Origin: an uncultured Kofleriaceae bacterium
GTDB lineage: Bacteria; Myxococcota_A; Polyangia; Haliangiales; Haliangiaceae
Reading direction: 5' to 3'
Assembly: GCA_964617845.1 (NCBI GenBank)
Contig: CAZUAR010000026.1
Location: 20,669 to 42,820, forward strand
Length of the DNA: 22,152 nucleotides
The notes beneath the pieces were generated by a model, which saw nothing but the letters and a program-made list of their open reading frames with translations, searched no databases and was not told the origin of the DNA. This document shows, one piece after another, positions 2,208 through 22,152 of this stretch; the stretch's first letter is position 1; every line of letters starts with the position of its first letter. The translations under genes were made by a program, and so were the position numbers.

Positions 2208-2209
2208 CC

Positions 2210-4963: not shown

Positions 4964-5257
4964 ATGGCACGCAGCAGCTGGATCAACGACGACTCGACGC
5001 CGGATCTCGACGAGCACGTCGGCAAGCTCGAACACTTCGCCACCGCGCTGGCCGACGGCGTGGTCGACGCGAAGGAGCTGTCGACGCAGGAGGCGAACCT
5101 CGTCGCGGCGATGAAGGCCGTCGAGGGCTCGCTGTCCGACGATCAGCACCAGAAGGTCACCAAGCTCCTCGCCGAGCTGACGGCGTACAGCGTCATGCGC
5201 ACGCTGCACGAGATGGCGCAGGCGCGCGTGGCCCAGGCGGTCGCAGCGAAGAAGTAG
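4964..5257 (+). CDS. Hypothetical small acidic protein (97 aa), predicted all-helical.
   Basis: ATG at 4964 preceded by AGGAGA (4951-4956, 7-nt spacer) in a locally AT-richer linker. Non-shadow amino-acid composition (D/E/K/Q/T-rich). 16 nt downstream of the AAA gene stop. Confidence 0.6.
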   Translation: MARSSWINDDSTPDLDEHVGKLEHFATALADGVVDAKELSTQEANLVAAMKAVEGSLSDDQHQKVTKLLAELTAYSVMRTLHEMAQARVAQAVAAKK

Positions 5258-5259
5258 CC

Positions 5260-5822: not shown

Positions 5823-7997
5823 GTGCTCGCGCGACGGATCATTGTCGTGGCTCCGGACAAGGCGTTCGGGAAGCAGCTCGCGGTTGCCCTGAAGGCCGCG
5901 GGCGGCACCGTCGACTCGCATACAGGCCTCGACCAGCTCGGTAACCAGATCCAGGCCGCGCTGATCGTGGTGCACCTCGACGGTGACATCGCGGGCATCG
6001 GACCGGACCTGCTCCAGCGGTTGATCGGCGACACGCGGATGATCGCGATCCTTCCGCGCTCGAACCTCGCCGCGGTCGTCGACATCATGCAGGCGTCCGA
6101 TCGCGTCGCGGGCATGGTCGTGGCCGAGGACTTCGACTCGCGACAGCTGTCCGCGATGGCGACGCGCGTGCTGTCCGGCGACATCTTCGGTGTCGACAAG
6201 CTGATCCTGTGGGGCACGCAGATCCACTCGTGCCTCGTCGGCGACTACCAGGAGAAGTCGCTGTGCATCTCGCAGATCAGCGAGTTCGCCGAGATGATGG
6301 GCGTGCGGCGCAAGTATCGCGAGTCGATCGAGCAGTGCATCGACGAGATGCTGATGAACGCGTTGTACGACGCGCCCGTCGACGATCAGGGAAAGCAGAT
6401 CTTCTCCGAGATCCCGACGAAGACACGCATCTCGCTCCGGCTCGATCAGAAGGCGGTCGTGCAGTACGCGTGCGACGGGCATCAGTTCGTCGTCGCGGTG
6501 CGCGATGCGTTCGGCACCCTCGAGCGCTCGACGGTGCTGCGCTACCTGCACAAGTGCCTCCACAGCGAGCAGCAGATCGATCGCAAGGCCGGCGGTGCGG
6601 GCCTCGGGCTCTACCTGATGACGAACGCGTCGTCGACGGTCTACTTCAACGTGCTGCCCGGCGTCGCGACCGAAGCGGTGTGCTGCTTCGATCTCGAGCA
6701 GCCGAAGATGCAGCTCGAGGCGTTCGGCTTCTTCCACGAGAAGATCGACGCCGCGGGTCGCCTCGCGACCGGACCGTCGCGGCGGTTGCCCATGGGGCAT
6801 CCCGTCGAGCGGCGCGCGCCTCGCCACCCGCCGGCGCCGCAGCAGTCGCGCGCGGTCATCTACGTGCTGGTCGCCGCGATCGTCGCGACGCTCGCGCTCG
6901 TCGGCGTCGCGGCCTACCCGCGCCTGTTCGGCGTGCAAAAGACCGCGGTCACGATCAAGACCGTGCCCAAGGGCGCGCTGATCGAGGTCGAAGGCAAGAA
7001 CGCGGGCACCGCCACGGACGGCACGCTCGTCGTGCGCGAGCTCGAGGTCGGGCGCGCGTATCCGATCGTCGCGCGCCTCGACGGATACGAGCCGCGCCAG
7101 GCCGTGGTGCAGCCGCGGTCGGGCACGAACGAGGTCACCCTCGAGCTGCACGCGCTCGCACCGACGGTGCGCATCGACTCGCTGCCGACGGGCGCGAGCG
7201 TCGACATCGACAGCAAGCCCGCGGGCACGACGCCGCTCGTGCTGTCGACGGCCCAGGCCGGAAGCACGATCACCCTGACGTTCAAGAAGAACGGGTACCA
7301 GCCCGCGACCGCGGAGCTCGAGGTTCCCGGCCCCGGCAAGGAGACGCGCCTGATCCAGCCGCTGGCGGTGAGCGATGACCTCGCGCGCATCAAGCTGACC
7401 TCGGAGCCGCCGGGCGCGCAGGTCGTGCAGAATGGCCAGCTGCTCGCCGGCGTGACCACGCCCGCCGAGGTGCTCGTCGAAGCCGGCAAGACCGTGCGCT
7501 TCACGCTGACGATGCCGAACAAGGTGCCGGCGGTGATCGAGCCCTTCACGCCGGGCCGCGGCGCGTCGGGCCTCGTGCGCAACGCGAAGCTCGTCGACGG
7601 CCGCACGCTCACCGTGACCTCGAACCTCGATGGCAAGGTCTCCGTCGGCGGGGCTTCGCACTGCCAGAACCTCGCGGTGCCCGCGACGTGCGTGGTGGCG
7701 CCGGGGCGGTACACGGTCGAGCTCGTCGCTGCCGTCGACCGGGCCGTCGGCGGGAAGGTCACGCGCAAGGTCGCGGTCGGCGAGAAGGGCGCGGCGGCGA
7801 TCGAGGAGAAGATCGAGCTCGGCTACGTCGAGGCCGGCCCGAACAAGCTGATCGATCTCGGCGGCAAGAAGGTCCGGCGCGTCGCGTTCGAGGTCGGCCC
7901 GCGCAAGGTGACGGTCGTCGGCACGCCCGGCCATGACGAGCCCGCGCACCCCGCGAATGTCGTGGTGAAAGCGGGCGCGACGGTGATCGTCAACTGA
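5823..7997 (+). CDS. Multidomain membrane signalling protein: N-terminal degenerate receiver-like domain, GHKL/HATPase-like (anti-sigma-factor-like) region, one TM helix, and a C-terminal tandem of PEGA domains.
   Basis: GTG at 5823 is the first start after an in-frame TGA at 5814. Receiver-like IIVVAPD...LIVVHLDGD...IAILPRS lacks the conserved Lys. N-box-like IEQCIDEMLMNALYDAP and G2-like GGAGLGLYLM. TM helix AVIYVLVAAIVATLALVGVAAYP at about 6850-6918. Repeated P.GA.V modules (TVPKGALIEV, SLPTGASVDI, SEPPGAQVVQ) typical of PEGA domains. Confidence 0.75.
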   Translation: MLARRIIVVAPDKAFGKQLAVALKAAGGTVDSHTGLDQLGNQIQAALIVVHLDGDIAGIGPDLLQRLIGDTRMIAILPRSNLAAVVDIMQASDRVAGMVVAEDFDSRQLSAMATRVLSGDIFGVDKLILWGTQIHSCLVGDYQEKSLCISQISEFAEMMGVRRKYRESIEQCIDEMLMNALYDAPVDDQGKQIFSEIPTKTRISLRLDQKAVVQYACDGHQFVVAVRDAFGTLERSTVLRYLHKCLHSEQQIDRKAGGAGLGLYLMTNASSTVYFNVLPGVATEAVCCFDLEQPKMQLEAFGFFHEKIDAAGRLATGPSRRLPMGHPVERRAPRHPPAPQQSRAVIYVLVAAIVATLALVGVAAYPRLFGVQKTAVTIKTVPKGALIEVEGKNAGTATDGTLVVRELEVGRAYPIVARLDGYEPRQAVVQPRSGTNEVTLELHALAPTVRIDSLPTGASVDIDSKPAGTTPLVLSTAQAGSTITLTFKKNGYQPATAELEVPGPGKETRLIQPLAVSDDLARIKLTSEPPGAQVVQNGQLLAGVTTPAEVLVEAGKTVRFTLTMPNKVPAVIEPFTPGRGASGLVRNAKLVDGRTLTVTSNLDGKVSVGGASHCQNLAVPATCVVAPGRYTVELVAAVDRAVGGKVTRKVAVGEKGAAAIEEKIELGYVEAGPNKLIDLGGKKVRRVAFEVGPRKVTVVGTPGHDEPAHPANVVVKAGATVIVN

Positions 7998-8116: not shown

Positions 8117-9781
8117 GTGTTCCTCCCGATCGTCCTCGTCGGCATCGTCATCGCGCTCGCGATCAGCGAGCCGAGCGGCGTGCCGGTGACATGGCCGATC
8201 ATCGCGACGAACGGCGTCGCGCTCGCGGCCGGGGCCGCGCTGTACATCGCGCTGCGCAAGGGCAAGCTGCCGGTGTCGCAAGCGCACGCGGTCAGCGCGC
8301 TGATCTGGCTCCTGCCGCCGGTCAACACGCTCACGTCGCTGCTCTTGACCGACGTCCCGACGCTGACCCTGATGCTGATGATCGAGCTCGCGAGCATTCC
8401 GATCCTCATCGATACGCGATGGGCGCTCGCGGCGAGCATCCCGGTCCTCGCGAGCTCGATCCCGCTCCTGCTCCGTGCCCACACGAGCGGCGTGTTCATG
8501 ACCGCCGTCGTCGGTGTGTGGGTCGTCGGCGTGCTGATGCAGCTCGTGTTGCGCCGCGCGACGATCCGCGGCGAGACCCACCGCCATCACTTGATGACGG
8601 CGCTGGAGACGCTCGAGGTCGAGCTCGCCGAACGCAAGCGGGCCGAGGCAGACCGCGAGGCGCTCCGCGATCAGTTCGTGCACGCGCAGCGAATGGAGGC
8701 GGTCGGCACGCTGTCGGCCGGCCTCGCGCACGACATGAACAACATCCTCGGCGGCATCCTCGCGTTCGCACAGATCTTGCGCGCGGAGGCCACGGACAAG
8801 CAGGTCCAGCAGGATCTCGATCGCATCCGGCAGGAGGCCGAGCGCGGCGCGGCGCTGACGCGTGGGCTCCTCGCGTTCTCGCGGCGCGGCGCGTATCGCC
8901 GGCGACCACTGCCGCTCGCGAGCGTGCTCGACGACATGACGCCGCTCCTCAAGACGCTCGGCAAGGGCATCTCGATCGAGCGCATCGATGGGCCGATGAT
9001 GATCGTCGACGGCGATCCGGCGCAGCTCGGCCAGGTGCTGTTCAACCTGTGTCGCAACGCCGCGGACGCGATGGGCGGCGAAGGCACGATCGTGATCAAG
9101 ACCGCCCAGGTCGAGCGCTCTGCCATCACCCACGCGAAGCTCTCGGTCACGGACACCGGCAGCGGCATGGACGAGGCGACGAAGAAGCGCATGTTCGAGC
9201 CATTCTTCACCACCAAGCCGATCGGCAAGGGCACCGGCCTCGGGCTCGCGATGGTGTACGGCGCGATCGAGGCGCACGACGGTGCGATCGAGGTGCGCTC
9301 CGCGCCGGGCGAAGGCACGACGGTGAACATCTACCTGCCGATCACCGAGGAGCTGCCGCAGCTCGCCCAGCGCGCCGCGGGCCAGGCGAGCGTGCGCCGT
9401 GGCCACGTGCTGATCGTCGACGACGACGCGACGATGCGCGAGGCGACGGCGCGCATCGCCGAGGGTATCGGCCTCACGCCTCTCGTCGCCTCCAACGGCA
9501 AGGAAGCGCTCGCGGTGTGGGCGCAGCACAAGGGGGCGATCACGCTCGTGCTGCTCGACATGGTGATGCCCGAGCTCGACGGCGCGGCGACGTTTCGCGC
9601 GCTGCGCGAGCAATCGAACGTTCCGGTGCTGCTCGTGTCGGGCTACACCGATCACACCGCAGCGCAGGAGCTGCTCGCGGAAGGCGCGGAAGGCTTCCTC
9701 GAGAAGCCGTTCACGGCGGAGGAGCTCGCCGGGGAGATCGATCGCATCCTCGGCCGGCGCAGCTCCGAGATCGTCGCATAG
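8117..9781 (+). CDS. Hybrid sensor histidine kinase: polytopic membrane sensor region, HisKA, HATPase_c, and a C-terminal receiver.
   Basis: H-box LSAGLAHDMNNIL, N-box LFNLCRNAADAM, G1 VTDTGSGM, F-box FEPFF, G2 GKGTGLGLAMV. Receiver HVLIVDDDATMRE...LLDMVMPELDG...LLVSGY...EKPF. Start is uncertain: GTG 8117 is the first canonical start after a stop at 7934, with no good SD. Confidence 0.85.
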   Translation: MFLPIVLVGIVIALAISEPSGVPVTWPIIATNGVALAAGAALYIALRKGKLPVSQAHAVSALIWLLPPVNTLTSLLLTDVPTLTLMLMIELASIPILIDTRWALAASIPVLASSIPLLLRAHTSGVFMTAVVGVWVVGVLMQLVLRRATIRGETHRHHLMTALETLEVELAERKRAEADREALRDQFVHAQRMEAVGTLSAGLAHDMNNILGGILAFAQILRAEATDKQVQQDLDRIRQEAERGAALTRGLLAFSRRGAYRRRPLPLASVLDDMTPLLKTLGKGISIERIDGPMMIVDGDPAQLGQVLFNLCRNAADAMGGEGTIVIKTAQVERSAITHAKLSVTDTGSGMDEATKKRMFEPFFTTKPIGKGTGLGLAMVYGAIEAHDGAIEVRSAPGEGTTVNIYLPITEELPQLAQRAAGQASVRRGHVLIVDDDATMREATARIAEGIGLTPLVASNGKEALAVWAQHKGAITLVLLDMVMPELDGAATFRALREQSNVPVLLVSGYTDHTAAQELLAEGAEGFLEKPFTAEELAGEIDRILGRRSSEIVA

Positions 9782-9812
9782 AGCCGGCGCACGTCGTGCA
9801 CCGCTTCCGTGC

Positions 9813-10886
9813 GTGAAACCCACGATCAGAGCGATCCTGATCGCAGCGCTCGTCTCGGCGTGCGGCCGACAAGATGCTGCGCCTCCCGCCGCACCTCCCG
9901 CGACGCAGGTCGCGACGGACGAGGTCGCGATCGTCCAGTACGGCCGGCTCTCGCACGGACCCTTGATCTCGGGCACGCTCGAGGCGAGCCGAGGTGCCAC
10001 GCTCGTCGCGCGTTCCGGCGGGACGGTCCTCGAGATCGGCGCCGAGCTCGGCGATCGCGTGCGCGAGGGCACGGTGCTCGCACGGATCGAGACGGCGGCG
10101 CTCGGCTCCTCGGCGGCGGGAGCGAAGGCAGCGGTCGACGCCGCAGAAGCACAACTCGAGGTCGCGCGCCGAGAAGCGGCGGTCGACAAGCGGCTGCTCG
10201 ACAGCGGCGCGATCACGCGGCAGGTCGCCGATGCGAGCGCGAGTCGCGTCGCCGCGCAGACCGCAGCCCTCGCGCAGGCGAAGGCACAGTACGCGGCCGC
10301 GGGCGAGCAACTCGGCGACACCGTGATCCGAGCGCCCATCGACGGCGTCGTCGCGAGGCGGACCGTGAAGGTCGGCGATGTCGTCGCTCCCGGCGCTCCA
10401 CTGTACGAGCTGATCGATCCATCGTCGCTGCGCCTCGCCGCGCAGGTCCCGTCGGATCGCATCGCGGCGATCCAGGAGGGCATGGAGGTCCGCTTCGTCG
10501 TCCGCGGCTACGGCGACAAGACGTTCGTCGGGACGATCTCGCGCATCTCGCCCGCGGCCGACCCGGTGACGCGCCAGCTGCCGATCCTCGTCGACATCCC
10601 GAACGCGGCGGGCGAGCTGCGCGCCGGGCTGTACGCCCAGGGCCGGCTCGATACGGAGACCGCCGACGGCGTGATCGTGCCCGGGTCGGCGATCGACGAG
10701 AGCGGCCAGGAGCCGACGGTCGCGAAGATCGTCGGCGACAAGGTGAAGGTGGTGCCGGTCGAGCTCGGCCTGCGCGATCCGCTGACGGATCGCGTGATCG
10801 TGAAGACGGGCCTCGCGCCCGGTGACCGCGTGATCCTCCGCGCGGTCGCGGCGCCGTCCTCGGGGACCACGATCAAGGTGAGCTGA
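9813..10886 (+). CDS. Efflux RND transporter periplasmic adaptor subunit (membrane fusion protein, HlyD/AcrA-like). Lipoprotein.
   Basis: GTG start. Signal peptide plus lipobox LVSAC-G. Long Ala/Gln-rich coiled-coil hairpin (AAQTAALAQAKAQYAAAGEQL). Lipoyl/beta-barrel segments (VIRAPIDGVVARRTVKVGDVV). Stop TGA 10884-10886 immediately abuts the RND pump ATG. Confidence 0.85.
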   Translation: MKPTIRAILIAALVSACGRQDAAPPAAPPATQVATDEVAIVQYGRLSHGPLISGTLEASRGATLVARSGGTVLEIGAELGDRVREGTVLARIETAALGSSAAGAKAAVDAAEAQLEVARREAAVDKRLLDSGAITRQVADASASRVAAQTAALAQAKAQYAAAGEQLGDTVIRAPIDGVVARRTVKVGDVVAPGAPLYELIDPSSLRLAAQVPSDRIAAIQEGMEVRFVVRGYGDKTFVGTISRISPAADPVTRQLPILVDIPNAAGELRAGLYAQGRLDTETADGVIVPGSAIDESGQEPTVAKIVGDKVKVVPVELGLRDPLTDRVIVKTGLAPGDRVILRAVAAPSSGTTIKVS

Positions 10887-13800
10887 ATGCTGATCTCCGA
10901 CTTCGCGATCAAGAAGCCGATCGTCACGACCGTCGTGATGATCGCGATCGTCGTGTTCGGCATGGCGGCGCTGTCGCAGCTCGAGACCGACGAGTTCCCC
11001 GAGGTGCAGCCGCCGATCGTGTCGATCGCGATCCCCTACCCCGGCGCATCGCCCGCCGTCGTCGAGCGAGAGGTCGTCGATCGCGTCGAGGAAGCGGTGC
11101 AGTCGATCAGCGGCCTCGACAAGCTGCGCTCGACCTCGCTCGACGGCTTCGCGGTCCTGATCGCGGAGTTCGACTTCGAGAAGTCACCCGAGGAGGCGAC
11201 GCAGAACGTCCGCGACGAGATCTCCGCGATCCGCGGCGATCTCCCGCAGGAGATGGAGGAGCCGATCCTCACGCGCTTCGATCCCGCGGAGCTGCCGATC
11301 GTGTCGCTCGCGCTGTCGGCGGACACGATGGACCCGGCCGCGCTCACGCGGCTCGCCGATCCGGAGATCAAGCGCGCGCTCACCGCGATCCCCGGCGTCG
11401 CCGACGTACAGATCATCGGCGGTGTCGAGCGCGAGCTCGTGATCGAGGCGCGCCCCGAAGCGCTCGAAGCGGCCGGCCTCTCGATCGCCGACGTCTCGCG
11501 CGCGGTGCAGACGAGCAACCTCGAGGCGCCCGTCGGCCGCCTCGTCGCCGGTAAGACCGAGCGCACGATCCGTCTCTCGGGTCGCCTCGAGAGACCCGCC
11601 GACTTCGAGCAGATCGTGGTGTCGCGCGCGAACGGCCGCACCGTCTATCTCGGCGAGGTCGCCCAGATCAAGGACTCCACCGAGGAGGCGCGCAGCGCCG
11701 CGTTCTTCGGCGATCGCGCGGGCGTCGGCATCGACATCAAGAAGGCGCTCGGCTACTCGACGACCGATGTGGCGAGCCTGATCCGCATGAAGGTCGGCGA
11801 GCTGCAGGCCGGCCTCCCCGAGGGCGTGAAGCTCGACGTCGTGCGCGACGCCGGCACGCGCGTGTCCAACTCCGTCACCGATGTCGGCAAGACGCTCGCG
11901 GAGGGCGCGCTGCTCACGATCCTCGTCGTGTTCCTGTTCCTGCGCTCGTGGCGCTCGACGGTGATCACGGGCCTCGCCCTGCCCGTCTCCGTGATCGCCG
12001 CGTTCGTCACCGTGTGGGCCTGGGGCTTCACGCTCAACACGATGTCGCTGCTCGGCCTGTCGCTGGCGATCGGCATCCTCGTCGACGACGCGATCGTCGT
12101 GCGCGAGAACATCGTGCGCCACCTCGAGATGGGCCGCGATCACCTGCGCGCCGCGCGCGAAGGCACGTCCGAGATCGGCCTCGCGGTCACCGCGACCACG
12201 CTGTCGATCGTCGTCGTGTTCGTGCCGATCGCGTTCATGGGCGGCATCGCGGAGCAATGGTTCGCGCCGTTCGCGCTGACGATCGCCTCCGCCGTCCTCG
12301 TCTCGCTCTTCGTGTCGTTCTCTCTCGATCCGATGCTGTCCGCCGTGTGGGAGGACCCCGAGGCGCACGGCAAGCGCTCGTGGATCTCGCGCCGCCTCGA
12401 GTTCTTCCATCGCGCGCTCGACTGGATGACCGAGAAGTACCGCCACATCATCCGCTGGACGCTGCGCCACCGCCTGATCACGTTCGCGCTCGCGATCGTC
12501 GCGTTCGTCGCATCGATCGCGCTGCCCGCGACGGGCACCGTCGGCAGCGAGTTCTTCCCGACTACCGACGAGTCCGAGTTCCAGCTGCAGATCGAGACCC
12601 CGCCCGGCAGCTCGCTCGCCTACACGCGCGACAAGCTCGAGACGGTCTCGAGGCTCGCGCGCGAGCACTCCGAGGTCGCCTACACCTACGCGACGATCGG
12701 CGGCCAGACCGGCGAGTCCGTCGACGAAGGCAGCCTCTACGTGCGCCTCGTCCCCAAGGACGAACGCGAGCGCTCGCAACAAGCCGTGATGGCCGACCTC
12801 CGCGCCGAGATCGCCGCGACATCCGGCGTCTCCGCGTGGGTCCCGCAGGGCTTCGGCGGCGAGCGCCAGATCGCGCTGCAGTTCGTCGGCCCCGACGCGA
12901 AGGTGCTGAACCGCATCGCCCTCGACGCGGCGTCGCGCATCCGCACGATCCCCGGCGTCGTCGACGTCGGCCTGTCGTCGAAGGGCCAGCGCCCCGAGCT
13001 CTCGGTCACGCCCGACCGCGCCTCCGGCGGCGCGATCGGCATCTCCGTCGGCGACCTCGCGCAATCCCTCCGCCCCGCATTCGCCGGCCTCGACGTCGGC
13101 GACTGGATCGATCCGGCCGGCGAGACCCGCGACGTCGTCGTTCGCCTCGCCGCGGGCGCGCGCGAGCAACCGATCGATGTCGCCGCGCTCCCGATCCGCA
13201 GCGCGACCGGCTCCCCCGTCCCGCTCGCGCAGGTCGCGACGCTCGACCAGTCGCTCGCACCGACGCAGATCGAGCACCTCGACGGCCGCCGCGTCGTCAC
13301 CGTCGCGGCCAACACCGCCGGCATCCCGCTGTCCGCCGCGAACGCCGAGATCGAGAAGGCCCTCGCCGACCTGCCGCTGCCGGCCGGCTACGAGCGCCTC
13401 ACCGGCGGCCAGACCGAGGACCAGCAGGAGGTGTTCGGGCGCATCTTCATGGCGCTCGGGATCGCGATCGTCCTCATGTACTTCGTCCTCGTCGTCCAGT
13501 TCGGCTCGTTCATCGATCCGATTCCGATCATGCTCTCGCTCCCGCTGTCGCTCATCGGCGTGATGCTCGCGCTGCTGGCCTCGGGCTCGACGCTCAACCT
13601 CATGTCGATGATCGGCATGATCCTGCTGATGGGCCTCGTCGCGAAGAACGCGATCCTCCTGATCGACTTCGCGAAGCGCGCGCAGTCCGGCGGCCGCACG
13701 CGCGAGGAGGCTCTCGCCGAAGCGGGCGCGGTTCGCTTCCGCCCGATCATCATGACGAGCGTGGCGATCATCGCGGGCATGATCCCCGTCGCGCTCGGCG

Positions 13801-14015
13801 GTGGCGAAGGCGCGGACTTCCGCGCGCCGCTCGGTCGCGCGGTCATCGGCGGCGTGATGGCGTCGACGATCCTGACGCTGCTCGTGATCCCCACGTTCTA
13901 CGACGTGGTCGCGAATGCGCGCGACCGCGTGGTGAGACGCCTCCGCAAGGGGCGTCCACCGGTCCTCGGCTCGCAGAAGCTGGGCGAGACGGGCCGCCAT
14001 CCGCGGATGGAGTAG
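10887..14015 (+). CDS. Efflux RND transporter permease subunit (AcrB/HAE1-like, 1042 aa).
   Basis: ATG at 10887 directly after the adaptor stop. 12-TM architecture with two large periplasmic loops. Conserved RND TM4 region GLSLAIGILVDDAIVVRENI. Size and topology typical of the AcrB/MexB/CzcA superfamily. Confidence 0.9.
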   Translation: MLISDFAIKKPIVTTVVMIAIVVFGMAALSQLETDEFPEVQPPIVSIAIPYPGASPAVVEREVVDRVEEAVQSISGLDKLRSTSLDGFAVLIAEFDFEKSPEEATQNVRDEISAIRGDLPQEMEEPILTRFDPAELPIVSLALSADTMDPAALTRLADPEIKRALTAIPGVADVQIIGGVERELVIEARPEALEAAGLSIADVSRAVQTSNLEAPVGRLVAGKTERTIRLSGRLERPADFEQIVVSRANGRTVYLGEVAQIKDSTEEARSAAFFGDRAGVGIDIKKALGYSTTDVASLIRMKVGELQAGLPEGVKLDVVRDAGTRVSNSVTDVGKTLAEGALLTILVVFLFLRSWRSTVITGLALPVSVIAAFVTVWAWGFTLNTMSLLGLSLAIGILVDDAIVVRENIVRHLEMGRDHLRAAREGTSEIGLAVTATTLSIVVVFVPIAFMGGIAEQWFAPFALTIASAVLVSLFVSFSLDPMLSAVWEDPEAHGKRSWISRRLEFFHRALDWMTEKYRHIIRWTLRHRLITFALAIVAFVASIALPATGTVGSEFFPTTDESEFQLQIETPPGSSLAYTRDKLETVSRLAREHSEVAYTYATIGGQTGESVDEGSLYVRLVPKDERERSQQAVMADLRAEIAATSGVSAWVPQGFGGERQIALQFVGPDAKVLNRIALDAASRIRTIPGVVDVGLSSKGQRPELSVTPDRASGGAIGISVGDLAQSLRPAFAGLDVGDWIDPAGETRDVVVRLAAGAREQPIDVAALPIRSATGSPVPLAQVATLDQSLAPTQIEHLDGRRVVTVAANTAGIPLSAANAEIEKALADLPLPAGYERLTGGQTEDQQEVFGRIFMALGIAIVLMYFVLVVQFGSFIDPIPIMLSLPLSLIGVMLALLASGSTLNLMSMIGMILLMGLVAKNAILLIDFAKRAQSGGRTREEALAEAGAVRFRPIIMTSVAIIAGMIPVALGGGEGADFRAPLGRAVIGGVMASTILTLLVIPTFYDVVANARDRVVRRLRKGRPPVLGSQKLGETGRHPRME
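13998..14011. repeat. Perfect 14-bp palindrome CCATCCGCGGATGG inside the last codons of the RND pump gene. It sits 20 nt from the convergent 1575-aa gene stop; the intergenic gap is 15 bp.
   Basis: The sequence is self-complementary. It is the only obvious secondary-structure element at a tail-to-tail junction that lacks room for a conventional terminator. Confidence 0.25.
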
Positions 14016-14030
14016 CTCCGTTCGTCGAGC

Positions 14031-17000
14031 CTACGGCGGATCGCTCTGGGCGCGCTTGTAGGCGCGCTCGAACAGCTCGTGCGTCGGCTCGTGCGGCACG
14101 TTGCGATCGAGCCCCGCGTAGAACGGCAGCTTCCACTCCTCGGTCGGCAGGTTCTCGCGATCGCCCTTCGTGTAGCCGCCCTTGATGAAGATCGAGCGGC
14201 CCGCGCGCTCGCGCTTGCCCTCGACGACGAGCTTCTTCTTCACGAGCTCCGCGGACGCGGCGGCGTACTGCTTCGTCGTCCAGCCGTTCCACGTCGTCAC
14301 GTTCTTCTGCGTGGGCTCGGCGAGCGCGAGCACCTGGAGATAGAGCGCGGCCGCTTCCTGCGACAGCCCTTCGGCCTTCGCGACCTTCGCGACGAGCTTG
14401 GGCGCCGACGCGAGCGGGTTCGCTTCGAAGCCGCCCTCCGGCACCTCGGTGTCGTCGACGCGATCGGCGAGCGCCGTGAAGCCGTCGGAGAGGATCAGCT
14501 GCGCCGTCTTGAGGTCCTCGAGCGGATCGCCGCCCGGGGTGTTCTCCTCGTCGAACATCGCCTGCGCGAGCTTCTCCGCCGTCTTGCCGCCCGCGCCGTC
14601 GAGCTTTCCGGGGCGGAAGCCCGCGTGCACGTGGTGCGTGTAGCGCGCGACGAGCACCGCGCCGTCATCGCGGGCCTCGCTGGCGAGGTCCTCGCCGCTC
14701 TTGCCGGCGTCGAACGTCTTTCCGGCCACGAGGTTCATCAGTGCGTCGGCGCGCGCCTTGTCCTTCGCGCTGTCGTCGTCGACGTAGAAGTCGTCGATCT
14801 TCCAGATCGCTTCGGGGGCGGACAGCATCGCGCGCAGCTTCTTGATGGCGGCCGGCACGCCCGCGCGGATCGGGCAGCCGATCGGACGCGCGAAGAACAG
14901 CCACGCGGCGAGCGTCGCGACCTCCTTCGCGCGTCGCGGCGTCAGGTAGCCTTCGCCGCGCTTGCGCCATGCGCCGATCTCCGCGAACGGTCGATCGTCG
15001 TTGCGCAGCCACGGGAGATCGAGCTCGCCCGCGAACAGCGGCAGGATCTCGGCGAGGTCGTTGCCGAGCGAGAGCTCCTTCTTCGCCTGCGCGATCAGGT
15101 CCTGCGGGATCTTGGTCTTCTTGCCGTACTTCTTCTTCCACGCGTCGCCGACGCGATCGGCCCAGCCGCCGTCGGTGGCGGGCGCAAGGAGCAGCGCCGG
15201 GTCGTCGGGGACCGCCGCATCGAGCAGCGCGTACAGCACGTCGTCGGTCAGCGGCTTGAACGTCTCGTTCGCGGCGGAGGCCTCGTCGCGCTTGAGCCCG
15301 AGCAGCTCGCGCGTGGGCTTGCCGAGGAAGTCCTTGCCCCACGCGTTGCGCTTGGGCGCGCCGTGGAAGAGCAGCGTCGCCTCGGCGAGCGACAGGTCGG
15401 CGCGCTTCGCGGTGCGCTCGGCCATCGCCGGCTCCCACGCCATCGGCGCATCGGGGAGCGCGAGGAGCTTCTCCGCCCACGCGGTGCCGATGCCCTTGCT
15501 CAGCTTGGTCGCCTTGTCGACCTTCCACTTGTTCGGCGGTGCGCGGAACGTGCCGTCGGTCGTGTACTCGATCGCCCAGTTGTTGTCCTCGTGGATCGCG
15601 AACACGCTCGCCTCGTGCTTCACGACCTTGAGCGTGCCGTACTCCTCGTCGTCGTCGCCGGTCCAGTCGTCGGGCTCCTCGATCGCGAGGTAGCGAACCG
15701 ATGACAGATCGTCGGCGAGGATCGTGCCCGCGAGCGCTTGCGCGATCTCGCGCGCCTTGCGCCGCGCGGCCTCCTCGGAGACCGGTGACAGCGCGCGCAT
15801 CACCTCGGCGCGCGGGCGAACGAGCCAGTCTTCGATGTCGGTGTCGAAGTCGGCGATCTTCGTCGCCTTGCCCGTCGCGAGCGCGAGCGCCATCTTGCGC
15901 ACGTTGCCCGCTTCACCGACGAGCGCGGTGCCGCTCGCGTCCGCGTTGTCCTTGTGACGCGCGGACGCCATCTCTCGCGCCTGGAGCACCAGCTCGGCCG
16001 CGCGCTCCGCGTGACCCGCGATTCCCGCGACGATCGCGGGGTGCGTCACGCCCGGGAGCGCGCTCTTGATCGCCGCTTCGATCGCGACGGTGATCGTGCC
16101 GCCGTCCGGCCGCGCCGAGACTTCCTTGATGGCGGCGTCGAGGATCGTCCGCGCGACGTCGGTCGTGATGCCACGCAGCGCGCGGCTCGATGCTTCGTCG
16201 CGCGGCGTCAGGTAGTGCCAGAACGCGACCGGCGGTACCGGCACGGTGCCCCAGCCACGCGACGTCCACGGATGCTGGTTGATCTCGCCGAGGTCGTGCT
16301 TGCCGCTCGGATCGTGGAGCTGCGCGCCCGGCCCGCCGCCTTCGATGAACCGCTTGCTGCTCGCCTGCTCCGCGGTGACCACGCGCAGCGACTCGTCGCC
16401 GGGGAACGACACGAGGTATTGGGGCGTATCGAAGCCCGTGTACATCCGCCCGTCGACGCGCTCCGCCTCCTGAAACGGTCGCGGATCGTCGTCGGCGCGC
16501 TCGCCCTTGACGTTGCGCACGCGAACACCGAGGAGGCCGTTCGCGATGCCGAGCGGCGAGAATGTCAGCCCGGGAGGCGCCGGATGCAGCCGGCAGTCCC
16601 TCACGTCGGTCTCGTAGCCTTCCCTGGTCCACTGCGCGATCCACGCGGGACCGCCGTCCTCGGCCCCCTTCGCGTTCTTGATCGGATCGTACGCGCGCAG
16701 CTTTCGCCCGTACTCCTTCTGCCACATCGTGGTTCCGTCGCAGAGGTACTCCATCGTCCCGGTGATCTCGCTGCCGCCGGGGTGGAACGCCTTGTGGCCG
16801 AGCGTCACGCTGCCGTCGGGCAACGTCCACGCGTACGGCGTGTTGCCGCCCCACGTGCGCAGGTGCGCCTTCTGTTCGTGCAGCTCCTTGGGCGCGCTCG
16901 CCCAGTAGAACATGTTCTGCCAGCCCTTCTCGGGGTCGAGCTCGACGAACAGCGCATCACCGAACAGGAACGCGCGCTCGATCTTGTACTCGGTCGGCTT

Positions 17001-18758
17001 CGCGACGATGTCGTGCTCCGCGCGAACACCGGTGTGATCGATCGCGAACACCTTCGACATCGACCACACGGTGAGCACCGGGAACGCACCGCCCGTCATG
17101 ATCGGTCCGTCGCCGAGCTTTTTGACCGTCTCCTCGTAGAGCGGCCAGCCGAGCTCGTCGACGATGCCGGAGCGCAGGTGCAGCACCAGGCTCTCGGCGA
17201 GATCGGCCTTCGCGAGGCGCTCCTGCAGATCCGCGAACGGCAGGAACGTCTCCGGCGTCGTCTTGTGGTCGAGCTCCACGAGCGTCTCGGCGATCGTCGA
17301 GAGCGACGCGCCGCCGAGCTTGTCGAGCTGCTCCTCGATCCACATGCGCCGCGCGGCGACGAAGCCCTGCTTCCCGCGCATGCGCGGCTCGTGCTCCGCT
17401 TCGCCCATCATGTCGGCGACGGCGGCGGCGAGGCGCTTGCCGTAGACGGCGTGGCCTGCGACGAGCACCGGGTCGACGGTCATCGATTCCGGATAGAAGC
17501 GATCGTTGCTGACGTCCTCGTCGAGCGGCACGCCGAGCTGGAGCGCGAGCTCCGCGAGATCGAGGTTCAGGTCGCTGCCCCAGCGCGGGCGCGGCGTCTC
17601 CACCTTGATCGGCTGCCGCAGCGCGACGAGGCGCGGCGCGACCTCGCGCAGCAGCGCCTCGGTGCGCTCGGTCTTGCCCGCGTACGCGAACAGCCTGCTC
17701 ATCCACGCGCCGAGACCTTCGTCCGGCAAACCGGACAGCGCGCCGATCTCGTCGAGCACGGTCATCCAGGTCTCGCTCTGGAACGTCTTCTTCGCATCCT
17801 GGTTGCCGCCCTTGGGCGACGGCCACAGGTTGCGCAAGCGCGCGCGTGCCTCGGGCTTCTCCCTGCCGATCCGCACGAGCGCGTCGCGATACGTCGACCA
17901 GAACTCCGACGGCGCCTTGTTGATGCCCGGCGCCTCGAGCATCTCGAGGGCGAGCGCGTCGGCTTCCTTGTCGACGTCGAGGCCCGCGCCCTTCGCGAGC
18001 GCCTGCAGATCCTTACCCATGCCCGAGTACGGCGGCATGCCGCCGAGCGCGCGCTTGATGATGATCGCGCGGAACCGCCGGTACGCTTCCTTGCCGCCCG
18101 CGGTCTTCGCGAGGTCCTTCGCGTATTGCGACAGCGTCTTCGCGCTCAGCGCGCCGAGCAGGGCGAACTCGACGAACACCGCGTCGGTGTCCTCGGGGTT
18201 CGTCTTCAGCTTGTACGCGCGCTCCGCTTGCCGCGCGCGCTCGAAGCACTGCGCCGCCATCGTCGACGACGCTTGATCGGCGACGACGCGACCGACCTCC
18301 TCCCAGAACGACGGCAAGAACTGCGGCGTGCCGCGCGACAGCGTCTTCGCGATCTTCTCGAACGCGTCCTTTGCGTGCCCTGGCTTTGCCTGCACGAGGC
18401 GCTTCGCCTTGCGCATCTCGTCGGTGACCTCGAGCGCGGCCTTCGCCTTCTTCGGCTCGTTGACCAGCGCCCACGCCGGAAACCCGAGCGTGCGGAAGCG
18501 AACCTGGCCGAGCGGCTTGCTCACCTCGGGCTCGCCGAAACCGAACGCCGCCATCTCCGCGTCCGTGCCCGCGGCGACCGCATCGGGCTCGAGGCGAATG
18601 ATCACCTTGCCCGGCTCGAGCGCCGGGTGCGGATAGGCGCGCGCCGTCACCGCGCTCGCGCGTTGGTCCTCTGCGAGCTTCGCGCCGAGCGCGACGATGC
18701 CGCCCGCGCCGAGCGTCGCGATCGCGTCGTGGGGAACGAGGTGTCCGCGATCAGTCAT
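14031..18758 (-). CDS. Large hypothetical protein (1575 aa), no recognisable catalytic or binding motif. Predicted cytoplasmic and largely helical.
   Basis: ATG at 18758-18756 inside ATGACTGA, giving an 8-bp overlap with the stop of the upstream gene. Non-shadow composition (W/Y/K/E/D-rich, few Arg runs). The opposite-strand ORFs 14079-15704 and 15954-18824 are Arg-rich shadows. No P-loop, no Cys clusters, no TM segments seen. Confidence 0.7.
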   Translation of the reverse strand: MTDRGHLVPHDAIATLGAGGIVALGAKLAEDQRASAVTARAYPHPALEPGKVIIRLEPDAVAAGTDAEMAAFGFGEPEVSKPLGQVRFRTLGFPAWALVNEPKKAKAALEVTDEMRKAKRLVQAKPGHAKDAFEKIAKTLSRGTPQFLPSFWEEVGRVVADQASSTMAAQCFERARQAERAYKLKTNPEDTDAVFVEFALLGALSAKTLSQYAKDLAKTAGGKEAYRRFRAIIIKRALGGMPPYSGMGKDLQALAKGAGLDVDKEADALALEMLEAPGINKAPSEFWSTYRDALVRIGREKPEARARLRNLWPSPKGGNQDAKKTFQSETWMTVLDEIGALSGLPDEGLGAWMSRLFAYAGKTERTEALLREVAPRLVALRQPIKVETPRPRWGSDLNLDLAELALQLGVPLDEDVSNDRFYPESMTVDPVLVAGHAVYGKRLAAAVADMMGEAEHEPRMRGKQGFVAARRMWIEEQLDKLGGASLSTIAETLVELDHKTTPETFLPFADLQERLAKADLAESLVLHLRSGIVDELGWPLYEETVKKLGDGPIMTGGAFPVLTVWSMSKVFAIDHTGVRAEHDIVAKPTEYKIERAFLFGDALFVELDPEKGWQNMFYWASAPKELHEQKAHLRTWGGNTPYAWTLPDGSVTLGHKAFHPGGSEITGTMEYLCDGTTMWQKEYGRKLRAYDPIKNAKGAEDGGPAWIAQWTREGYETDVRDCRLHPAPPGLTFSPLGIANGLLGVRVRNVKGERADDDPRPFQEAERVDGRMYTGFDTPQYLVSFPGDESLRVVTAEQASSKRFIEGGGPGAQLHDPSGKHDLGEINQHPWTSRGWGTVPVPPVAFWHYLTPRDEASSRALRGITTDVARTILDAAIKEVSARPDGGTITVAIEAAIKSALPGVTHPAIVAGIAGHAERAAELVLQAREMASARHKDNADASGTALVGEAGNVRKMALALATGKATKIADFDTDIEDWLVRPRAEVMRALSPVSEEAARRKAREIAQALAGTILADDLSSVRYLAIEEPDDWTGDDDEEYGTLKVVKHEASVFAIHEDNNWAIEYTTDGTFRAPPNKWKVDKATKLSKGIGTAWAEKLLALPDAPMAWEPAMAERTAKRADLSLAEATLLFHGAPKRNAWGKDFLGKPTRELLGLKRDEASAANETFKPLTDDVLYALLDAAVPDDPALLLAPATDGGWADRVGDAWKKKYGKKTKIPQDLIAQAKKELSLGNDLAEILPLFAGELDLPWLRNDDRPFAEIGAWRKRGEGYLTPRRAKEVATLAAWLFFARPIGCPIRAGVPAAIKKLRAMLSAPEAIWKIDDFYVDDDSAKDKARADALMNLVAGKTFDAGKSGEDLASEARDDGAVLVARYTHHVHAGFRPGKLDGAGGKTAEKLAQAMFDEENTPGGDPLEDLKTAQLILSDGFTALADRVDDTEVPEGGFEANPLASAPKLVAKVAKAEGLSQEAAALYLQVLALAEPTQKNVTTWNGWTTKQYAAASAELVKKKLVVEGKRERAGRSIFIKGGYTKGDRENLPTEEWKLPFYAGLDRNVPHEPTHELFERAYKRAQSDPP

Positions 18759-19809
18759 TGTCGCCCTCCTTCTCGACCTTGCGCTTGGCGTAGATCAGCG
18801 ACGCCATGCGCATGCCTTCGCTGAACGCGATCGCCGGGACGTCGGTCACCGCGATCGGTCGCTGCTTGTCGTCGACCCAGCTCAGCTCGCCGGTCGTCGT
18901 CTCGTACATCGGATCGCCGCCGTCGCCGAGCGAGTAGCGCCCCTCGACGTAGCGGCCGTTCTCGAGCACGCGGCACACCGAAGCGCCGCCCGACACGCGA
19001 TAGCCGAGCCGCTTCGCGAGGCCGATCGCCTGCGACAGCATCGAGAACTCGCCTCCCGCGTACGTCTCGAGCGCGTGCGGATCCGCGGGCGGCGTCTTCG
19101 GCGGCGTGAACGTCTCGCGGAACAGCTGCGAGAGGCCCTGTTTCACGCCGACCTGGACCGCGAGCTCGCGCAGATCGTCGAGCTCGTCGAGCACGACCGG
19201 GTGCGGGATCATCACCGTCTCGGTCTGGAGCCACGTCGTCTCGCCATCGCGATCGACGACGCCGATGCCCTTCTGCTTGTCGACGCCGCGGAAGAACCCG
19301 CCGGCTTCACGGTCGACCTTGCCGTTCCGGTCGACACCGACGACCCACGCGTCGCGCAGCACGCGCGACCAGTGGTCATCGGCGAGCACGCTCTCGAGCA
19401 CGCCGCGCGGCACGGGGAGCGAGCGCAGCATCCATGTCTCGACGGTGTGCAGGCACGTCCGCGCGTGCTCCTCCAGGAAGTCGAGCGCCGCTTCGAGCGT
19501 CTCGCCGACCGGGGACTCCTTGACCGGCTTGGGGACCGAGCCGAGCTCCTTTCCGTCCTTCTTCGCGACGAGCTTCGGCTCGCCCTCGTCGTTCGTGCGG
19601 ATCGCGAGCGCGATGCCCTTGCCGGCGTCCATCCATCCCGGCTCCGCCGCCACCTTGCCCGCTGGCGCCTTCTGGCGCGCGGCCGACTTCGGTGCGGGTG
19701 TTGACTTTTTCGCGGCCGGCGGCTTCTTCGCCACCGCCTTCGTCTTCTTCGCTTGCGCAGACTTGTGCGCAGCTTTCGGCGCGGCCTTCTTGCCCTTGGT
19801 CTTCGCCAT
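18751..19809 (-). CDS. Hypothetical protein (352 aa) with an ~55-aa histone-H1-like K/A/P-rich N-terminal tail and a globular C-terminal domain of unknown function. Translationally coupled to the 1575-aa gene.
   Basis: ATG at 19809 with GGGGGAA upstream. N-terminus MAKTKGKKAAPKAAHKSAQAKKTKAVAKKPPAAKKSTPAPKSAARQKAPAGK. Stop TGA 18753-18751 overlaps the downstream ATG. The opposite-strand ORF 18697-19704 is Arg-rich shadow. Confidence 0.7.
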   Translation of the reverse strand: MAKTKGKKAAPKAAHKSAQAKKTKAVAKKPPAAKKSTPAPKSAARQKAPAGKVAAEPGWMDAGKGIALAIRTNDEGEPKLVAKKDGKELGSVPKPVKESPVGETLEAALDFLEEHARTCLHTVETWMLRSLPVPRGVLESVLADDHWSRVLRDAWVVGVDRNGKVDREAGGFFRGVDKQKGIGVVDRDGETTWLQTETVMIPHPVVLDELDDLRELAVQVGVKQGLSQLFRETFTPPKTPPADPHALETYAGGEFSMLSQAIGLAKRLGYRVSGGASVCRVLENGRYVEGRYSLGDGGDPMYETTTGELSWVDDKQRPIAVTDVPAIAFSEGMRMASLIYAKRKVEKEGDND

Positions 19810-19876: not shown

Positions 19877-21151
19877 GTGAGGTTCGCTTTTCTCGCAGTC
19901 GTCGGTCTCGCCGGCTCCGCCGCGGCCGCGCCGACGATGACGAGCCAGAGCGATCCACATCCCGGCATCCACCTCGAGCGATGGACCGACTCCGCGATCC
20001 CCGCGAAGCTCGTGCTCGTTCGCATCGATCTGACGTCGGCCGAGATCGCGGTCTACACGACGAAGGAAGCCGACAAGGGCATCACCACGAGCACCGCGGC
20101 GCAGCGCATGACCGCGCAGGTCGCGATCAACGGCGATGCGTTCGCGGCGCTCGACTACACGCCGCGCGGCCTCGCACTCGGCGACTCGACGCCGTGGACC
20201 AACACCGCCGACTCGAACGTGCTGCCGCTGATGCACGTCCGCCGCGTCGGCGAGCGAACGACCGCGACGATCGTTCCGCCCGAGATCGTCGTCGGTCCCG
20301 ACGATCTACCCGCGGGGACACAAGGCGCGATCAGCGGGCGGCCGCTGCTCGTGCGCGCGGGCAACGTCGCACCGCAGTTCGACTGCGCGGATCCGGTCAC
20401 GCTCTCCTGCCAGCGCGCACCGCGCTCGGCGGTCGCCGTGTCCTCCGATGGCAACACGATGTGGCTCGTCACGGTCGACGGCTGGCAGAACGGCTCGGTC
20501 GGCATGACGGCCGCGGAGCTCGCGCAGTTCCTCGACGCGCGCGGCGCCCACATGGCGATGGCGCTCGACAGCGGCAGCTCCGCGACGATGGTCGTCGACG
20601 GCACGCTCGCGACGATGCCCTCCGATGGCGTCGAGCGCCGCGTCGCGAACCACATCGCGGTGAAGTACGGCGCGCTGCTTAAGGGCGAGCTCGTGGGCCT
20701 CGTGTGCGCCAACAGCATCACGAACTGCACGCGGCTGACCGGCGCCATCGTGACGCTCGACGACGGCCGCATGCAGACGACCGGCTCCGATGGGTTCTAC
20801 GACTTCACCGGCATCACGCCGCGCCTCGCCTGCATCACCGCGAAGAAGACCGGCTACAAGACCAAGCAGCAGTGCGCGATCGTCGAGTCGAGCATGCAGA
20901 ACTTCAACTCGATCGTGCTCGAGCCCGGCACCGACCCGATAATAGACGCGGGTGTCCCGGATGCGCCCGGTCCCGACGACGACGCCGGCGTTCCACCGGG
21001 CGATGGTGGGATGGATCCCGACGGTGGAATCCCCGACATGGGCGATGGAGGCGGCTGCTGCGATGCTGGGCGCGAGCGACCGCCGATCGCCATCGTTCTT
21101 GGGGTGGCGCTGGGATGGATGCTGAGACGCCGTCGCGGTACAAACGTCTAG
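19877..21151 (+). CDS. Secreted phosphodiester glycosidase-family (NAGPA/DUF2233-like) protein with a carboxypeptidase-regulatory-like beta domain and a C-terminal MYXO-CTERM-type sorting signal.
   Basis: GTG at 19877 is the first start after TAG 19865-19867. Signal peptide MRFAFLAVVGLAGSAAAAP. Motifs AINGDAF and ALDSGSSATMVVDG (compare INGGFF / LDGGGSST of pfam09992). D/G/P-rich linker with DAGVP repeats. Terminal GGGCCDAG-RERPPIAIVLGVALGWML-RRRRG, i.e. Cys motif, TM helix, Arg cluster. Confidence 0.8.
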   Translation: MRFAFLAVVGLAGSAAAAPTMTSQSDPHPGIHLERWTDSAIPAKLVLVRIDLTSAEIAVYTTKEADKGITTSTAAQRMTAQVAINGDAFAALDYTPRGLALGDSTPWTNTADSNVLPLMHVRRVGERTTATIVPPEIVVGPDDLPAGTQGAISGRPLLVRAGNVAPQFDCADPVTLSCQRAPRSAVAVSSDGNTMWLVTVDGWQNGSVGMTAAELAQFLDARGAHMAMALDSGSSATMVVDGTLATMPSDGVERRVANHIAVKYGALLKGELVGLVCANSITNCTRLTGAIVTLDDGRMQTTGSDGFYDFTGITPRLACITAKKTGYKTKQQCAIVESSMQNFNSIVLEPGTDPIIDAGVPDAPGPDDDAGVPPGDGGMDPDGGIPDMGDGGGCCDAGRERPPIAIVLGVALGWMLRRRRGTNV

Positions 21152-21152
21152 G

Positions 21153-22152
21153 GTGTCCACCGTCCACACGCAGCTCCTGACCGACGACGCCAGTGGCATG
21201 CTCGTCGAGCGCTCCTTCCGGTTGCGCGTGGTCTCCGGTCCCGACGCGGGCAAGGCCCACACCCTCGACGAGGGCACCACGATGGTCGGCACGCACGCCG
21301 ACAACGATCTCGTGCTCACGGACGCGACGGTGTCGCGCTACCACCTCGAGATCCGCGTGCGCCGCGATGGGATCGAGGTGCGCGATCTCGACACGACCAA
21401 CGGTACCAAGCACGGCGGCGTTCGCATCAACAGCATCGTCTTGACCAACGCCGCGCGCCTGCGCCTGGGCAAGCACACCGAGATGGACGTCGAGCCCGTC
21501 GACACCAACGTCGAGGTCGGCGAGTGGCACGGCGATCGCTTCGGCGACGTGCTCGGCACGACGACGCCGATGCGGCGGTTGTTCGCGTTGCTCGGAAAGG
21601 CCGCGCCGACCGAGGCCACGATCCTCCTGCAAGGCGAGACGGGCACCGGCAAGGAAGCGATCGCCGAGGCGGTCCACAAGATGAGCAAGCGGGCGAAGGG
21701 CCCGTTCGTCGTCGTCGACTGCGGATCGATCCCGCACGAGCTGATCGCGTCGGAGCTGTTCGGCCACGCGAAGGGCTCGTTCACCGGCGCCAACGCCGAC
21801 AAGCAAGGCCTGATCGAAGCGGCCAACCAGGGCACGCTGTTCCTCGACGAGATCGGCGAGCTCGCGATCGATCTGCAGCCGCAGCTGCTGCGCGTGCTCG
21901 ATCGCCGGCAGGTCCGCCGCGTCGGCGAGACGCAGTCGGTCGATGTCGACATCCGCGTGATCGCGGCGACGCACCGCGATCTGCGCGCGATGGTCAAGGC
22001 CGGCACGTTCCGCGAGGATCTCTACTATCGCCTCGCCGTCGTCGCGACGTTCGTGCCGCCGCTGCGTGATCGCAAGGCCGACATCCCCGCGCTCGCGGCG
22101 TGGTTCGCCGAGCGCATGGGCCGCGGTGGGTTCGCGCACTCGCCTGCCCTGC
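21153..22152 (+). CDS. FHA-domain sigma-54-dependent transcriptional activator (bacterial enhancer-binding protein). The 3' end runs off the window.
   Basis: Frame 0 is open to the window end. GTG at 21153 lies 1 nt after the upstream TAG; alternative ATG at 21198. FHA-like N-terminus (RLRVVSGPDAGKAHTLDEGTTMVGTHADNDLVLTDATVSRYHLEI...TNGT). Sigma-54 AAA+ motifs GETGTGKE, GAFTGA variant GSFTGA, ESELFGH, FLDEIGEL. Confidence 0.85.
   Translation, partial: MSTVHTQLLTDDASGMLVERSFRLRVVSGPDAGKAHTLDEGTTMVGTHADNDLVLTDATVSRYHLEIRVRRDGIEVRDLDTTNGTKHGGVRINSIVLTNAARLRLGKHTEMDVEPVDTNVEVGEWHGDRFGDVLGTTTPMRRLFALLGKAAPTEATILLQGETGTGKEAIAEAVHKMSKRAKGPFVVVDCGSIPHELIASELFGHAKGSFTGANADKQGLIEAANQGTLFLDEIGELAIDLQPQLLRVLDRRQVRRVGETQSVDVDIRVIAATHRDLRAMVKAGTFREDLYYRLAVVATFVPPLRDRKADIPALAAWFAERMGRGGFAHSPAL

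Follow-up and report, generated by a model that had tools for sequence, protein, structure and literature searches.

The yeh cluster of Escherichia coli associates, in this order, a WGR gene (yehF), two DUF4132 genes (yehH/molR and yehI), a MoxR ATPase gene (yehL) and genes encoding a DUF5682 (yehM), a VWA (yehP) and a SWIM (yehQ) protein. MolR has figured on lists of SOS genes since about 2000, and both molR/yehI and yehLMPQ have remained without an assigned function for decades. There is almost no literature on DUF4132, and the MoxR subfamily named after YehL has no assigned role (PMC3893208). We describe here a pair of genes from an uncultured soil bacterium of the Kofleriaceae (Myxococcota), located in a stretch of 22,152 nucleotides that is referred to below as the window (contig CAZUAR010000026.1, positions 20,669 to 42,820). 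One of them encodes a DUF4132 protein of 352 residues and the other a protein of 1575 residues, belonging to a family for which there is no literature, no name and no Pfam model. Comparison with related loci indicates that the two genes are a paralogous copy, now detached, of those that open a five-gene system sharing most of its components with the yeh cluster. Our preferred reading, to which we give a probability of about 0.5, is that the products of the pair are the two subunits of a sensor or scaffold complex associated with DNA, part of an uncharacterised MoxR system linked to DNA damage.

The two genes form the sole minus-strand unit of the window. The small gene (18751..19809) and the large gene (14031..18758), both starting with ATG and defined by their open reading frame (ORF) and its translation, overlap by 8 nt (ATGACTGA, 18751..18758, minus strand), the stop codon of the former being embedded with the start codon of the latter. 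A Shine-Dalgarno sequence of the large gene, AAGGAGG, can be read directly at 18765..18771 (minus strand), within the small gene and 6 nt 5' of the ATG. Because the G+C content is high across the window (65-72%, for 69% in the genome), many long spurious ORFs occur on both strands, and real genes were distinguished from these shadow ORFs by the G+C content of their codon positions. Both genes of the pair are real: the G+C content of the third position (GC3) reaches 0.93 in the large gene and 0.915 in the small one, for about 0.68 at the first and 0.47 at the second position in both ORFs, and the shadow ORFs of the opposite strand are devoid of this coding-type pattern. A preliminary description of this DNA, made from its letters without database searches, had proposed two genes of these sizes with an 8-bp overlap; the ORFs, the GC3 values, the overlap sequence and the Shine-Dalgarno sequence all agree with it.

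The small protein is a member of the DUF4132 (MolR/YehI domain) family. The Pfam model (PF13569) matches its residues 86-270 (19000..19554, minus strand) from the first to the last of the 179 profile positions, with a score of 73.6 bits for a cut-off of 27 and an E-value of 2.6e-20. This globular part is preceded by a Lys/Ala/Pro-rich N-terminal tail and followed by a short acidic C-terminus. A WGR/DUF4132 architecture had been considered and dismissed at first: no WGR domain (PF05406) was indeed found in the small or the large protein, nor elsewhere in the window by tblastn, but the DUF4132 domain is present in the small partner and had been looked for in the wrong protein. The conserved globular region extends approximately from residue 58 to residue 345 and contains a series of invariant residues (H115, R129, D144, H203-P204, R214, Q224, Q228, R231, E289, T306, S330-E331-G332 and R343). 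We retrieved 965 homologues of the small protein. Identity is 60-90% within the clade of the window, defined by an identity of at least 48% between the large proteins and composed of the window and of six related loci (L004, L005 and L008-L011). Neither the small protein nor its profile matched an entry of the PDB. An hhalign comparison of the profile with the single YehI sequence also gave no match, a weak test which leaves the Pfam model as the only link to YehI.

The association of a DUF4132 gene with the large gene is widely conserved. Among 79 related loci fetched for gene-order counts, from Myxococcota, Actinomycetota, Planctomycetota, Acidobacteriota and others, 74 have the DUF4132 gene immediately 5' of the large gene, and in three of the five exceptions the available upstream DNA is shorter than 1 kb. 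A stop/start overlap of 4 or 8 nt is available in 64 of 73 loci (4 nt in 52, 8 nt in 12), a somewhat favourable count as the start codon nearest to the upstream stop was used, and this recurrence argues that the overlap is not due to chance. Moreover, DUF4132 and the large protein are found as a single chain in three cases (P0066, P0254 and an ORF of locus L018), in which the gene order is kept and DUF4132 is joined to the N-terminus of the large protein. Such a fusion in gene order is a classical signature of two subunits of one complex. On the basis of the pairing, the conserved overlap and the three fusions, co-expression of the two proteins is supported and a complex between them is very probable, as the preliminary description had supposed. 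It had also singled out two outcomes that would speak against its proposals, a pairing restricted to this genome and the membership of the large protein in a known family; the result is mixed, with a conserved pairing and a large protein that falls in no known family, but a small partner of the MolR/YehI type. The pair of the window itself shows the attributes of the conserved pair, with an overlapping upstream DUF4132 gene, a modelled N-terminal solenoid and a modelled C-terminal winged helix-turn-helix (wHTH).

Homologues of the large protein are present in Kofleriaceae, other Myxococcota and many Actinomycetes, and a scan of one genome per species, which extended the distribution to Planctomycetota and Acidobacteriota, revealed at least 592 loci. 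Single contigs of metagenome-assembled genomes (MAGs) labelled Chitinophaga and Selenomonadaceae also carry homologues. A profile of the N-terminal domain, run against 1.84 billion proteins, retrieved 867 clusters at 50% identity, and the full-length identity of the window's large protein with family members ranges from 28 to 85%. The database representative P0001, from a Kofleriaceae MAG, is given as 100% identical to this protein and differs from it at a few residues (e.g. IKNAKGAE vs IKNTKGAE), so that the window derives from a very close but non-identical sequence. An Actinoalloteichus locus (L002) holds two tandem full-length large genes and, between the large genes and the MoxR gene, a 731-residue truncated paralogue of approximately the first 630 residues of the large protein (12944-15139).

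In most of these loci, the pair is part of a larger gene set. A MoxR ATPase of the AAA_5 type accompanies it in 62 of the 79 loci, a protein in which DUF5682 and VWA_CoxE domains are fused in 56, and a protein of about 600 residues with a SWIM-like CxC...CxH signature, located as in E. coli YehQ, in 49. The resulting five-gene system thus comprises DUF4132, the large protein, a YehL-type MoxR AAA+ ATPase, DUF5682/VWA and the SWIM protein; in a Streptomyces operon, RefSeq labels the corresponding products as DUF4132 protein, 'DNA-binding protein', AAA family ATPase, DUF5682 family protein and hypothetical protein. The resemblance with the yeh cluster is extensive: DUF4132 is common to both (a single Pfam model gives 73.6 bits with the small protein and 161.8 bits with YehI), genes of the MoxR AAA_5, DUF5682, VWA_CoxE and SWIM types come after the pair in the window's relatives, a WGR module is associated with DUF4132 in E. 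coli as in these relatives, and both the E. coli cluster and the family are tied to DNA-damage regulons. The differences concern the organization of the proteins. In E. coli, DUF4132 is the C-terminal part of proteins of 1200 residues, whereas it is here a separate protein of about 300 residues accompanied by a 1575-residue partner without detectable similarity to YehI by BLASTP or hhalign. In addition, DUF5682 and VWA are fused in the window's relatives, and the clade of the window has lost the adjacency of the ATPase genes.

In this clade, the pair stands alone among unrelated neighbours that are partly syntenic between genomes. The loci L012 and L014 present an intermediate picture, a pair of the window type being located back to back with a complete system that holds its own, more distant pair, and in L013 a window-type pair follows a complete system in tandem. 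In the MAG MSU bin108, the two arrangements coexist on separate contigs, an isolated pair in L010 and a complete system in L017. These arrangements indicate that the pair of the window is a detached paralogous second head of the five-gene system, made of its first two genes, and not an orphan. It could then rely on a MoxR module located at another place in the genome.

The large protein is, by composition, rich in alanine (14.2%), leucine (9.8%) and glycine (8.4%), followed by glutamate (7.7%) and lysine (6.7%); its initial qualification as W/Y/K/E-rich is appropriate for tryptophan, which is raised (2.3%), but not for tyrosine (2.1%, not raised), and A, L and G lead. The lack of P-loop, cysteine clusters, transmembrane helices and repeats, noted at the same time, was borne out: the protein has no P-loop, no CxxC, no tandem repeat and no transmembrane helix, with a peak hydropathy of 1.35 over 19 residues. 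It gave no sequence match in Pfam, NCBIfam, PADLOC or the PDB, and no WGR domain was found in its N-terminus. The possibility that it represents the other part of a split MolR was rejected, as BLASTP with the protein and hhalign with the protein or its N-domain profile gave nothing against E. coli YehI.

The protein had also been described as being without recognisable motif, a view that structure prediction does not sustain. It was modelled as two overlapping pieces, using alignments of 46 diverse homologues, and both models reached good confidence, with a predicted local distance difference test (pLDDT) of 89.2 and a predicted template modelling score (pTM) of 0.75 for residues 1-960, and values of 91.2 and 0.80, respectively, for residues 850-1575. 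According to these models, residues 30-550 (17109..18671, minus strand) would fold into a small alpha/beta unit (34-90) and a TPR-like alpha-solenoid, which together constitute the most conserved part of the family. They would be followed by a beta-rich, propeller-like domain (residues 553-826, 16281..17102, minus strand), with weak Foldseek matches only, and by a long, partly variable helical region including a small beta domain (residues ~830-1460), with no convincing match in the PDB. Residues 1467-1524 (14187..14360, minus strand) are predicted to form a C-terminal wHTH with a MarR/ArsR-like fold, composed of three helices and a beta hairpin wing and superposable on solved wHTH structures; its wing contains the invariant residues K1515, R1516, R1518 and R1521. 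The best-conserved stretches are residues 50-300 and 1450-1575. The best reading of the models is that the large subunit offers protein-interaction surfaces, through its TPR-like solenoid and propeller-like domain, in addition to a wHTH, i.e. that it is a multidomain scaffold.

The N-terminal module of the small subunit is interchangeable, since the relatives hold at this position a WGR domain, a basic tail or nothing. In the window, it is a Lys/Ala/Pro-rich tail (residues 1-57, 19639..19809, minus strand, delimited by composition) containing 16 K, 1 R, 18 A, 7 P and a single acidic residue, for a net charge of about +16, while the remainder of both proteins is acidic; the H1/AlgP-like composition initially attributed to it is thereby confirmed. 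It is followed by the motif PGW[IVM]DAGKG, conserved in the clade of the window, which opens the globular part. Within this clade, the tail is kept by composition, with a median of 44 residues (range 14 to more than 60) and 28% K/R. Histone H1-like Lys/Ala/Pro tails are known in AlgP, mycobacterial HupB and chlamydial Hc1. The tail of the window appears to resemble them by its 30% K/R and 44% A/P over 57 residues with hardly any acidic residue, but it has no regular repeat unit, is N-terminal and joined to DUF4132, and varies widely in length among close relatives.

Several myxobacterial partners have, in place of the tail, one to three WGR domains and a K/A/P-rich or acidic linker. The combination of WGR, K/A/P linker and DUF4132 was found in L013, L014, L027, L030, L038 and L048, L013 being the closest outgroup of the window's clade. 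In L048, the small partner (8158-10002) carries three tandem WGR domains before DUF4132. Long Lys-rich tails devoid of WGR occur in further partners from myxobacteria and planctomycetes, and no tail is present in any actinobacterial partner or in the fusions of DUF4132 with the large protein. WGR domains contact DNA breaks in PARP enzymes. Considering the exchange of WGR for a basic tail, the wHTH predicted in the large subunit and the SWIM protein of the system, a nucleic-acid-centred function appears as the most economical reading. The binding of DNA, RNA or another polyanion suggested in the preliminary description from the tail is thus in part retained, as the K/A/P tail occupies the position of the WGR domains and K/A/P linker of the relatives.

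The promoters of the family were inspected because of two reports on related genes. E. coli molR is listed among the LexA-regulated genes with a known SOS box (PMC6590174), and the Deinococcus radiodurans genes DRA0166 (DUF4132) and DR2173 (WGR) are strongly induced upon depletion of the radiation-response repressor DdrO (bioRxiv 10.1101/2021.07.07.451423). In E. coli K-12 (L007, 2450-2465), the WGR gene yehF, located ahead of the DUF4132 genes, is itself preceded at about 10 nt by a CTG-N10-CAG sequence (AACTGGATAAAATTACAGGG), which probably corresponds to the SOS box known for molR.

In Actinobacteria, the motif TGTC-N12-TANNNT is present in all of the 37 loci considered (among L039-L086), starting 57-93 nt, mostly 60 nt, upstream of the start codon of the DUF4132 gene, for a chance expectation of 0.0044 per 150 nt. 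The more precise form TGTCRG-N10-TANNNT occurs in 29 of these loci. An example of the motif, of the TTGTCRGTG-N8-TAnnnT type, is found in L043 (9077-9098), and motifs of this kind also precede Streptomyces operons of the family. The whole 1.6 Mb of actinobacterial loci contains 47 matches on both strands, the 37 operon-upstream ones included. In Actinobacteria, the DNA-damage response that does not depend on LexA is activated by PafBC. The upstream motif matches the published PafBC (RecA-NDp / P1) motif, whose consensus is given as tGTCgg(N10)tA(N3)T (PMC8635444) or tTGTCRgtg(8 nt)TannnT (PMC5656591 Table S1), and its distance to the operons is promoter-like; the control by PafBC is itself a prediction. 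The family differs from the PafBC regulon as currently described in that it is not among the targets reported in the PafBC literature compared, and the organism of the window is a myxobacterium: the motif is absent upstream of its pair and in all 34 non-actinobacterial loci. Perfect Gram-positive LexA (Cheo) boxes do not occur before the actinobacterial operons, and six with one mismatch are scattered. No DUF4132, DUF5682, WGR or SWIM entry was found in the supplements of the LexA study of Streptomyces venezuelae and of the DdiA study of Myxococcus xanthus, whose tables possibly list locus tags only. In Mycobacterium smegmatis, MSMEG_5511, annotated as 'von Willebrand factor, type A', has a P1/PafBC motif and an altered protein level in a pafBC mutant (PMC5656591 Table S1). 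Considering the LexA listing of molR, the induction upon DdrO depletion and the actinobacterial PafBC motif, members of this gene set appear to be under three unrelated damage regulators, each in a different phylum.

The YehL-type MoxR/VWA/SWIM system is probably DNA-associated and probably linked to DNA damage, and this link may extend to the organism of the window. According to our preferred reading of the pair as a sensor or scaffold complex, the Lys-rich tail of the small DUF4132 subunit would replace the WGR domain(s) of its relatives, and the complex presumably formed by the two proteins would bind DNA, or a nucleic-acid structure related to damage, through the tail and the wHTH. The MoxR-VWA engine, which would here be encoded elsewhere in the genome, would assemble, remodel or release this complex, which would act within the DNA-damage response. 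Several observations weigh against this proposal. No MoxR, DUF5682/VWA, SWIM or WGR gene is present within the 22-kb window, and these genes are consistently missing near the pair throughout its clade, so that the pair may work alone in these bacteria. No catalytic domain was recognised. Concerning regulation, the PafBC dependence of the actinobacterial operons is predicted from the motif, and Stratton et al. observed that the mycobacterial motif is seemingly not conserved in S. venezuelae (PMC9380542). In Myxococcota, the window included, the pair showed no upstream motif of DNA-damage type: 30 myxobacterial loci were devoid of an M. xanthus-type LexA box, and no upstream motif shared by the window's clade was found.

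The genes surrounding the pair are all on the plus strand. An HlyD/AcrB efflux pair (9813-14015) is convergent with it, and a gene for an NAGPA-type phosphodiester glycosidase (19877-21151) is divergent from it and followed by a gene for an FHA-sigma54 activator. Scans for Rfam families, tandem repeats and sigma-70 promoters around the pair found nothing. Further away, the window contains a cluster (945-5799) encoding an ABC-type ATPase, a family-less protein of about 309 residues, a classical AAA ATPase (3142-4947) and a 179-residue protein, whose gene order is found again close to the pair of L005 (16885-21883). The window also encodes a 724-residue protein (5823-7997) with two PEGA domains and a weak match to HATPase_c_2 (anti-sigma-type kinase), followed by a hybrid histidine kinase (8117-9781). 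The glycosidase and FHA-sigma54 activator genes (19877-22152) also flank the pair in L004 (4416-8537), which points to a stable chromosomal synteny in Kofleriaceae and not to a mobile island.

This ordinary chromosomal context, with synteny kept and no island-like feature, bears on the proposal that the pair belongs to an anti-phage or other conflict system, the preliminary description having envisaged a conflict system. The giant protein would then sense invaders by means of its repeats and propeller and be connected to a MoxR-VWA switch, as in the NTP-dependent ternary systems described by the group of Aravind, and the damage-type promoters would reflect prophage induction and not repair. 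MoxR-vWA pairs are indeed the core of predicted conflict systems (PMC7159879, summarised in PMC13622651), and DNA-damage regulators also control defence in some bacteria (PMC12392091). The concentration of the family in Myxococcota, Actinomycetota and Planctomycetota and the occurrence of paralogous pairs within one genome or locus are also compatible with such a role. The MoxR-vWA-VMAP ternary systems (Kaur, Burroughs, Iyer, Aravind 2020) similarly combine MoxR and vWA with large repeat or propeller proteins in bacteria of complex life style, but we found here no VMAP, effector-associated or death-like domain, and no effector domain, whether nuclease, protease, TIR or other, could be recognised. 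As the term 'SWIM' does not occur in that paper, the Yeh-type cluster is probably not described there. The search of PADLOC-DB v2 gave no match for the pair of the window and no meaningful one for the Streptomyces pair, MoxR, DUF5682/VWA and SWIM-like protein, nor for YehI. A collection of 50,697 phage records yielded no copy, and plasmid matches were limited to eight, all on actinobacterial megaplasmids. The rapid diversification of a sensor is not seen either, the small protein being highly conserved across the clade. With no specific pointer towards conflict, we consider this role unlikely.

A stand-alone nucleoid-associated or architectural pair, along the lines of the nucleoid-associated role put forward in the preliminary description, which would act on DNA by coating or bridging it through its H1-like tail and wHTH, without any ATPase, would account for the isolation of the pair in the window's clade, for the conserved wHTH and for the contrast between the strongly basic tail and the otherwise acidic proteins. 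It is nonetheless rather improbable, since the tail is a minority feature of the family, lacking in every actinobacterial partner and in the fusions, the pair lies within a MoxR/VWA operon in the 62 loci mentioned above, and a 1575-residue solenoid/propeller protein resembles no known nucleoid protein. The least probable of the alternatives is that the pair is a client or adaptor for a metalloenzyme maturation driven by MoxR/VWA, as suggested by the label 'molybdate metabolism regulator' and the CoxD/CoxE precedent, or else a plain wHTH transcription factor. The associated VWA domain is of the CoxE type, MolR has a legacy molybdate annotation and the MoxR ATPases are commonly viewed as chaperones for maturation (PMC3893208). 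Like the established MoxR-VWA pairs (RavA-ViaA, CoxD-CoxE, NorQ-NorD and CbbQ-CbbO), the window's relatives share an operon with an AAA_5 ATPase of the MoxR family and a VWA protein of the CoxE type. However, those pairs act on defined enzyme clients, whereas no enzyme client is encoded here and the associated proteins carry modules of nucleic-acid type (wHTH, WGR, SWIM and basic tail). No gene for a molybdenum enzyme, a carbon monoxide dehydrogenase (CODH) or another metalloenzyme adjoins the pair in any locus inspected, the moe genes were unchanged in the Deinococcus study of DdrO (bioRxiv 10.1101/2021.07.07.451423), and the promoter evidence favours DNA damage.

This analysis links the DUF4132 domain, a large unannotated protein family and the YehL-type ATPase module. 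It also leads to a broader view, which we put forward only tentatively and hold to be less probable than its contrary: DUF4132, the giant solenoid/propeller/wHTH protein, YehL-type MoxR, DUF5682/VWA and the SWIM protein would constitute an unrecognised and widespread damage-response machine, captured independently by LexA in E. coli, DdrO in Deinococcus and PafBC in Actinomycetes. DUF4132 and the large protein would be its head, sensing lesions or single-stranded DNA, and the detached heads of myxobacteria would plug into one ATPase engine. The PafBC-type promoter found in every actinobacterial locus examined provides a testable regulatory handle. If the DNA-damage reading is correct, tractable Streptomyces carry an unstudied, conserved damage-response complex, and the pair of the window would illustrate that the sensing head of this complex may be duplicated, may exchange WGR for a basic tail and may become separated from the engine.

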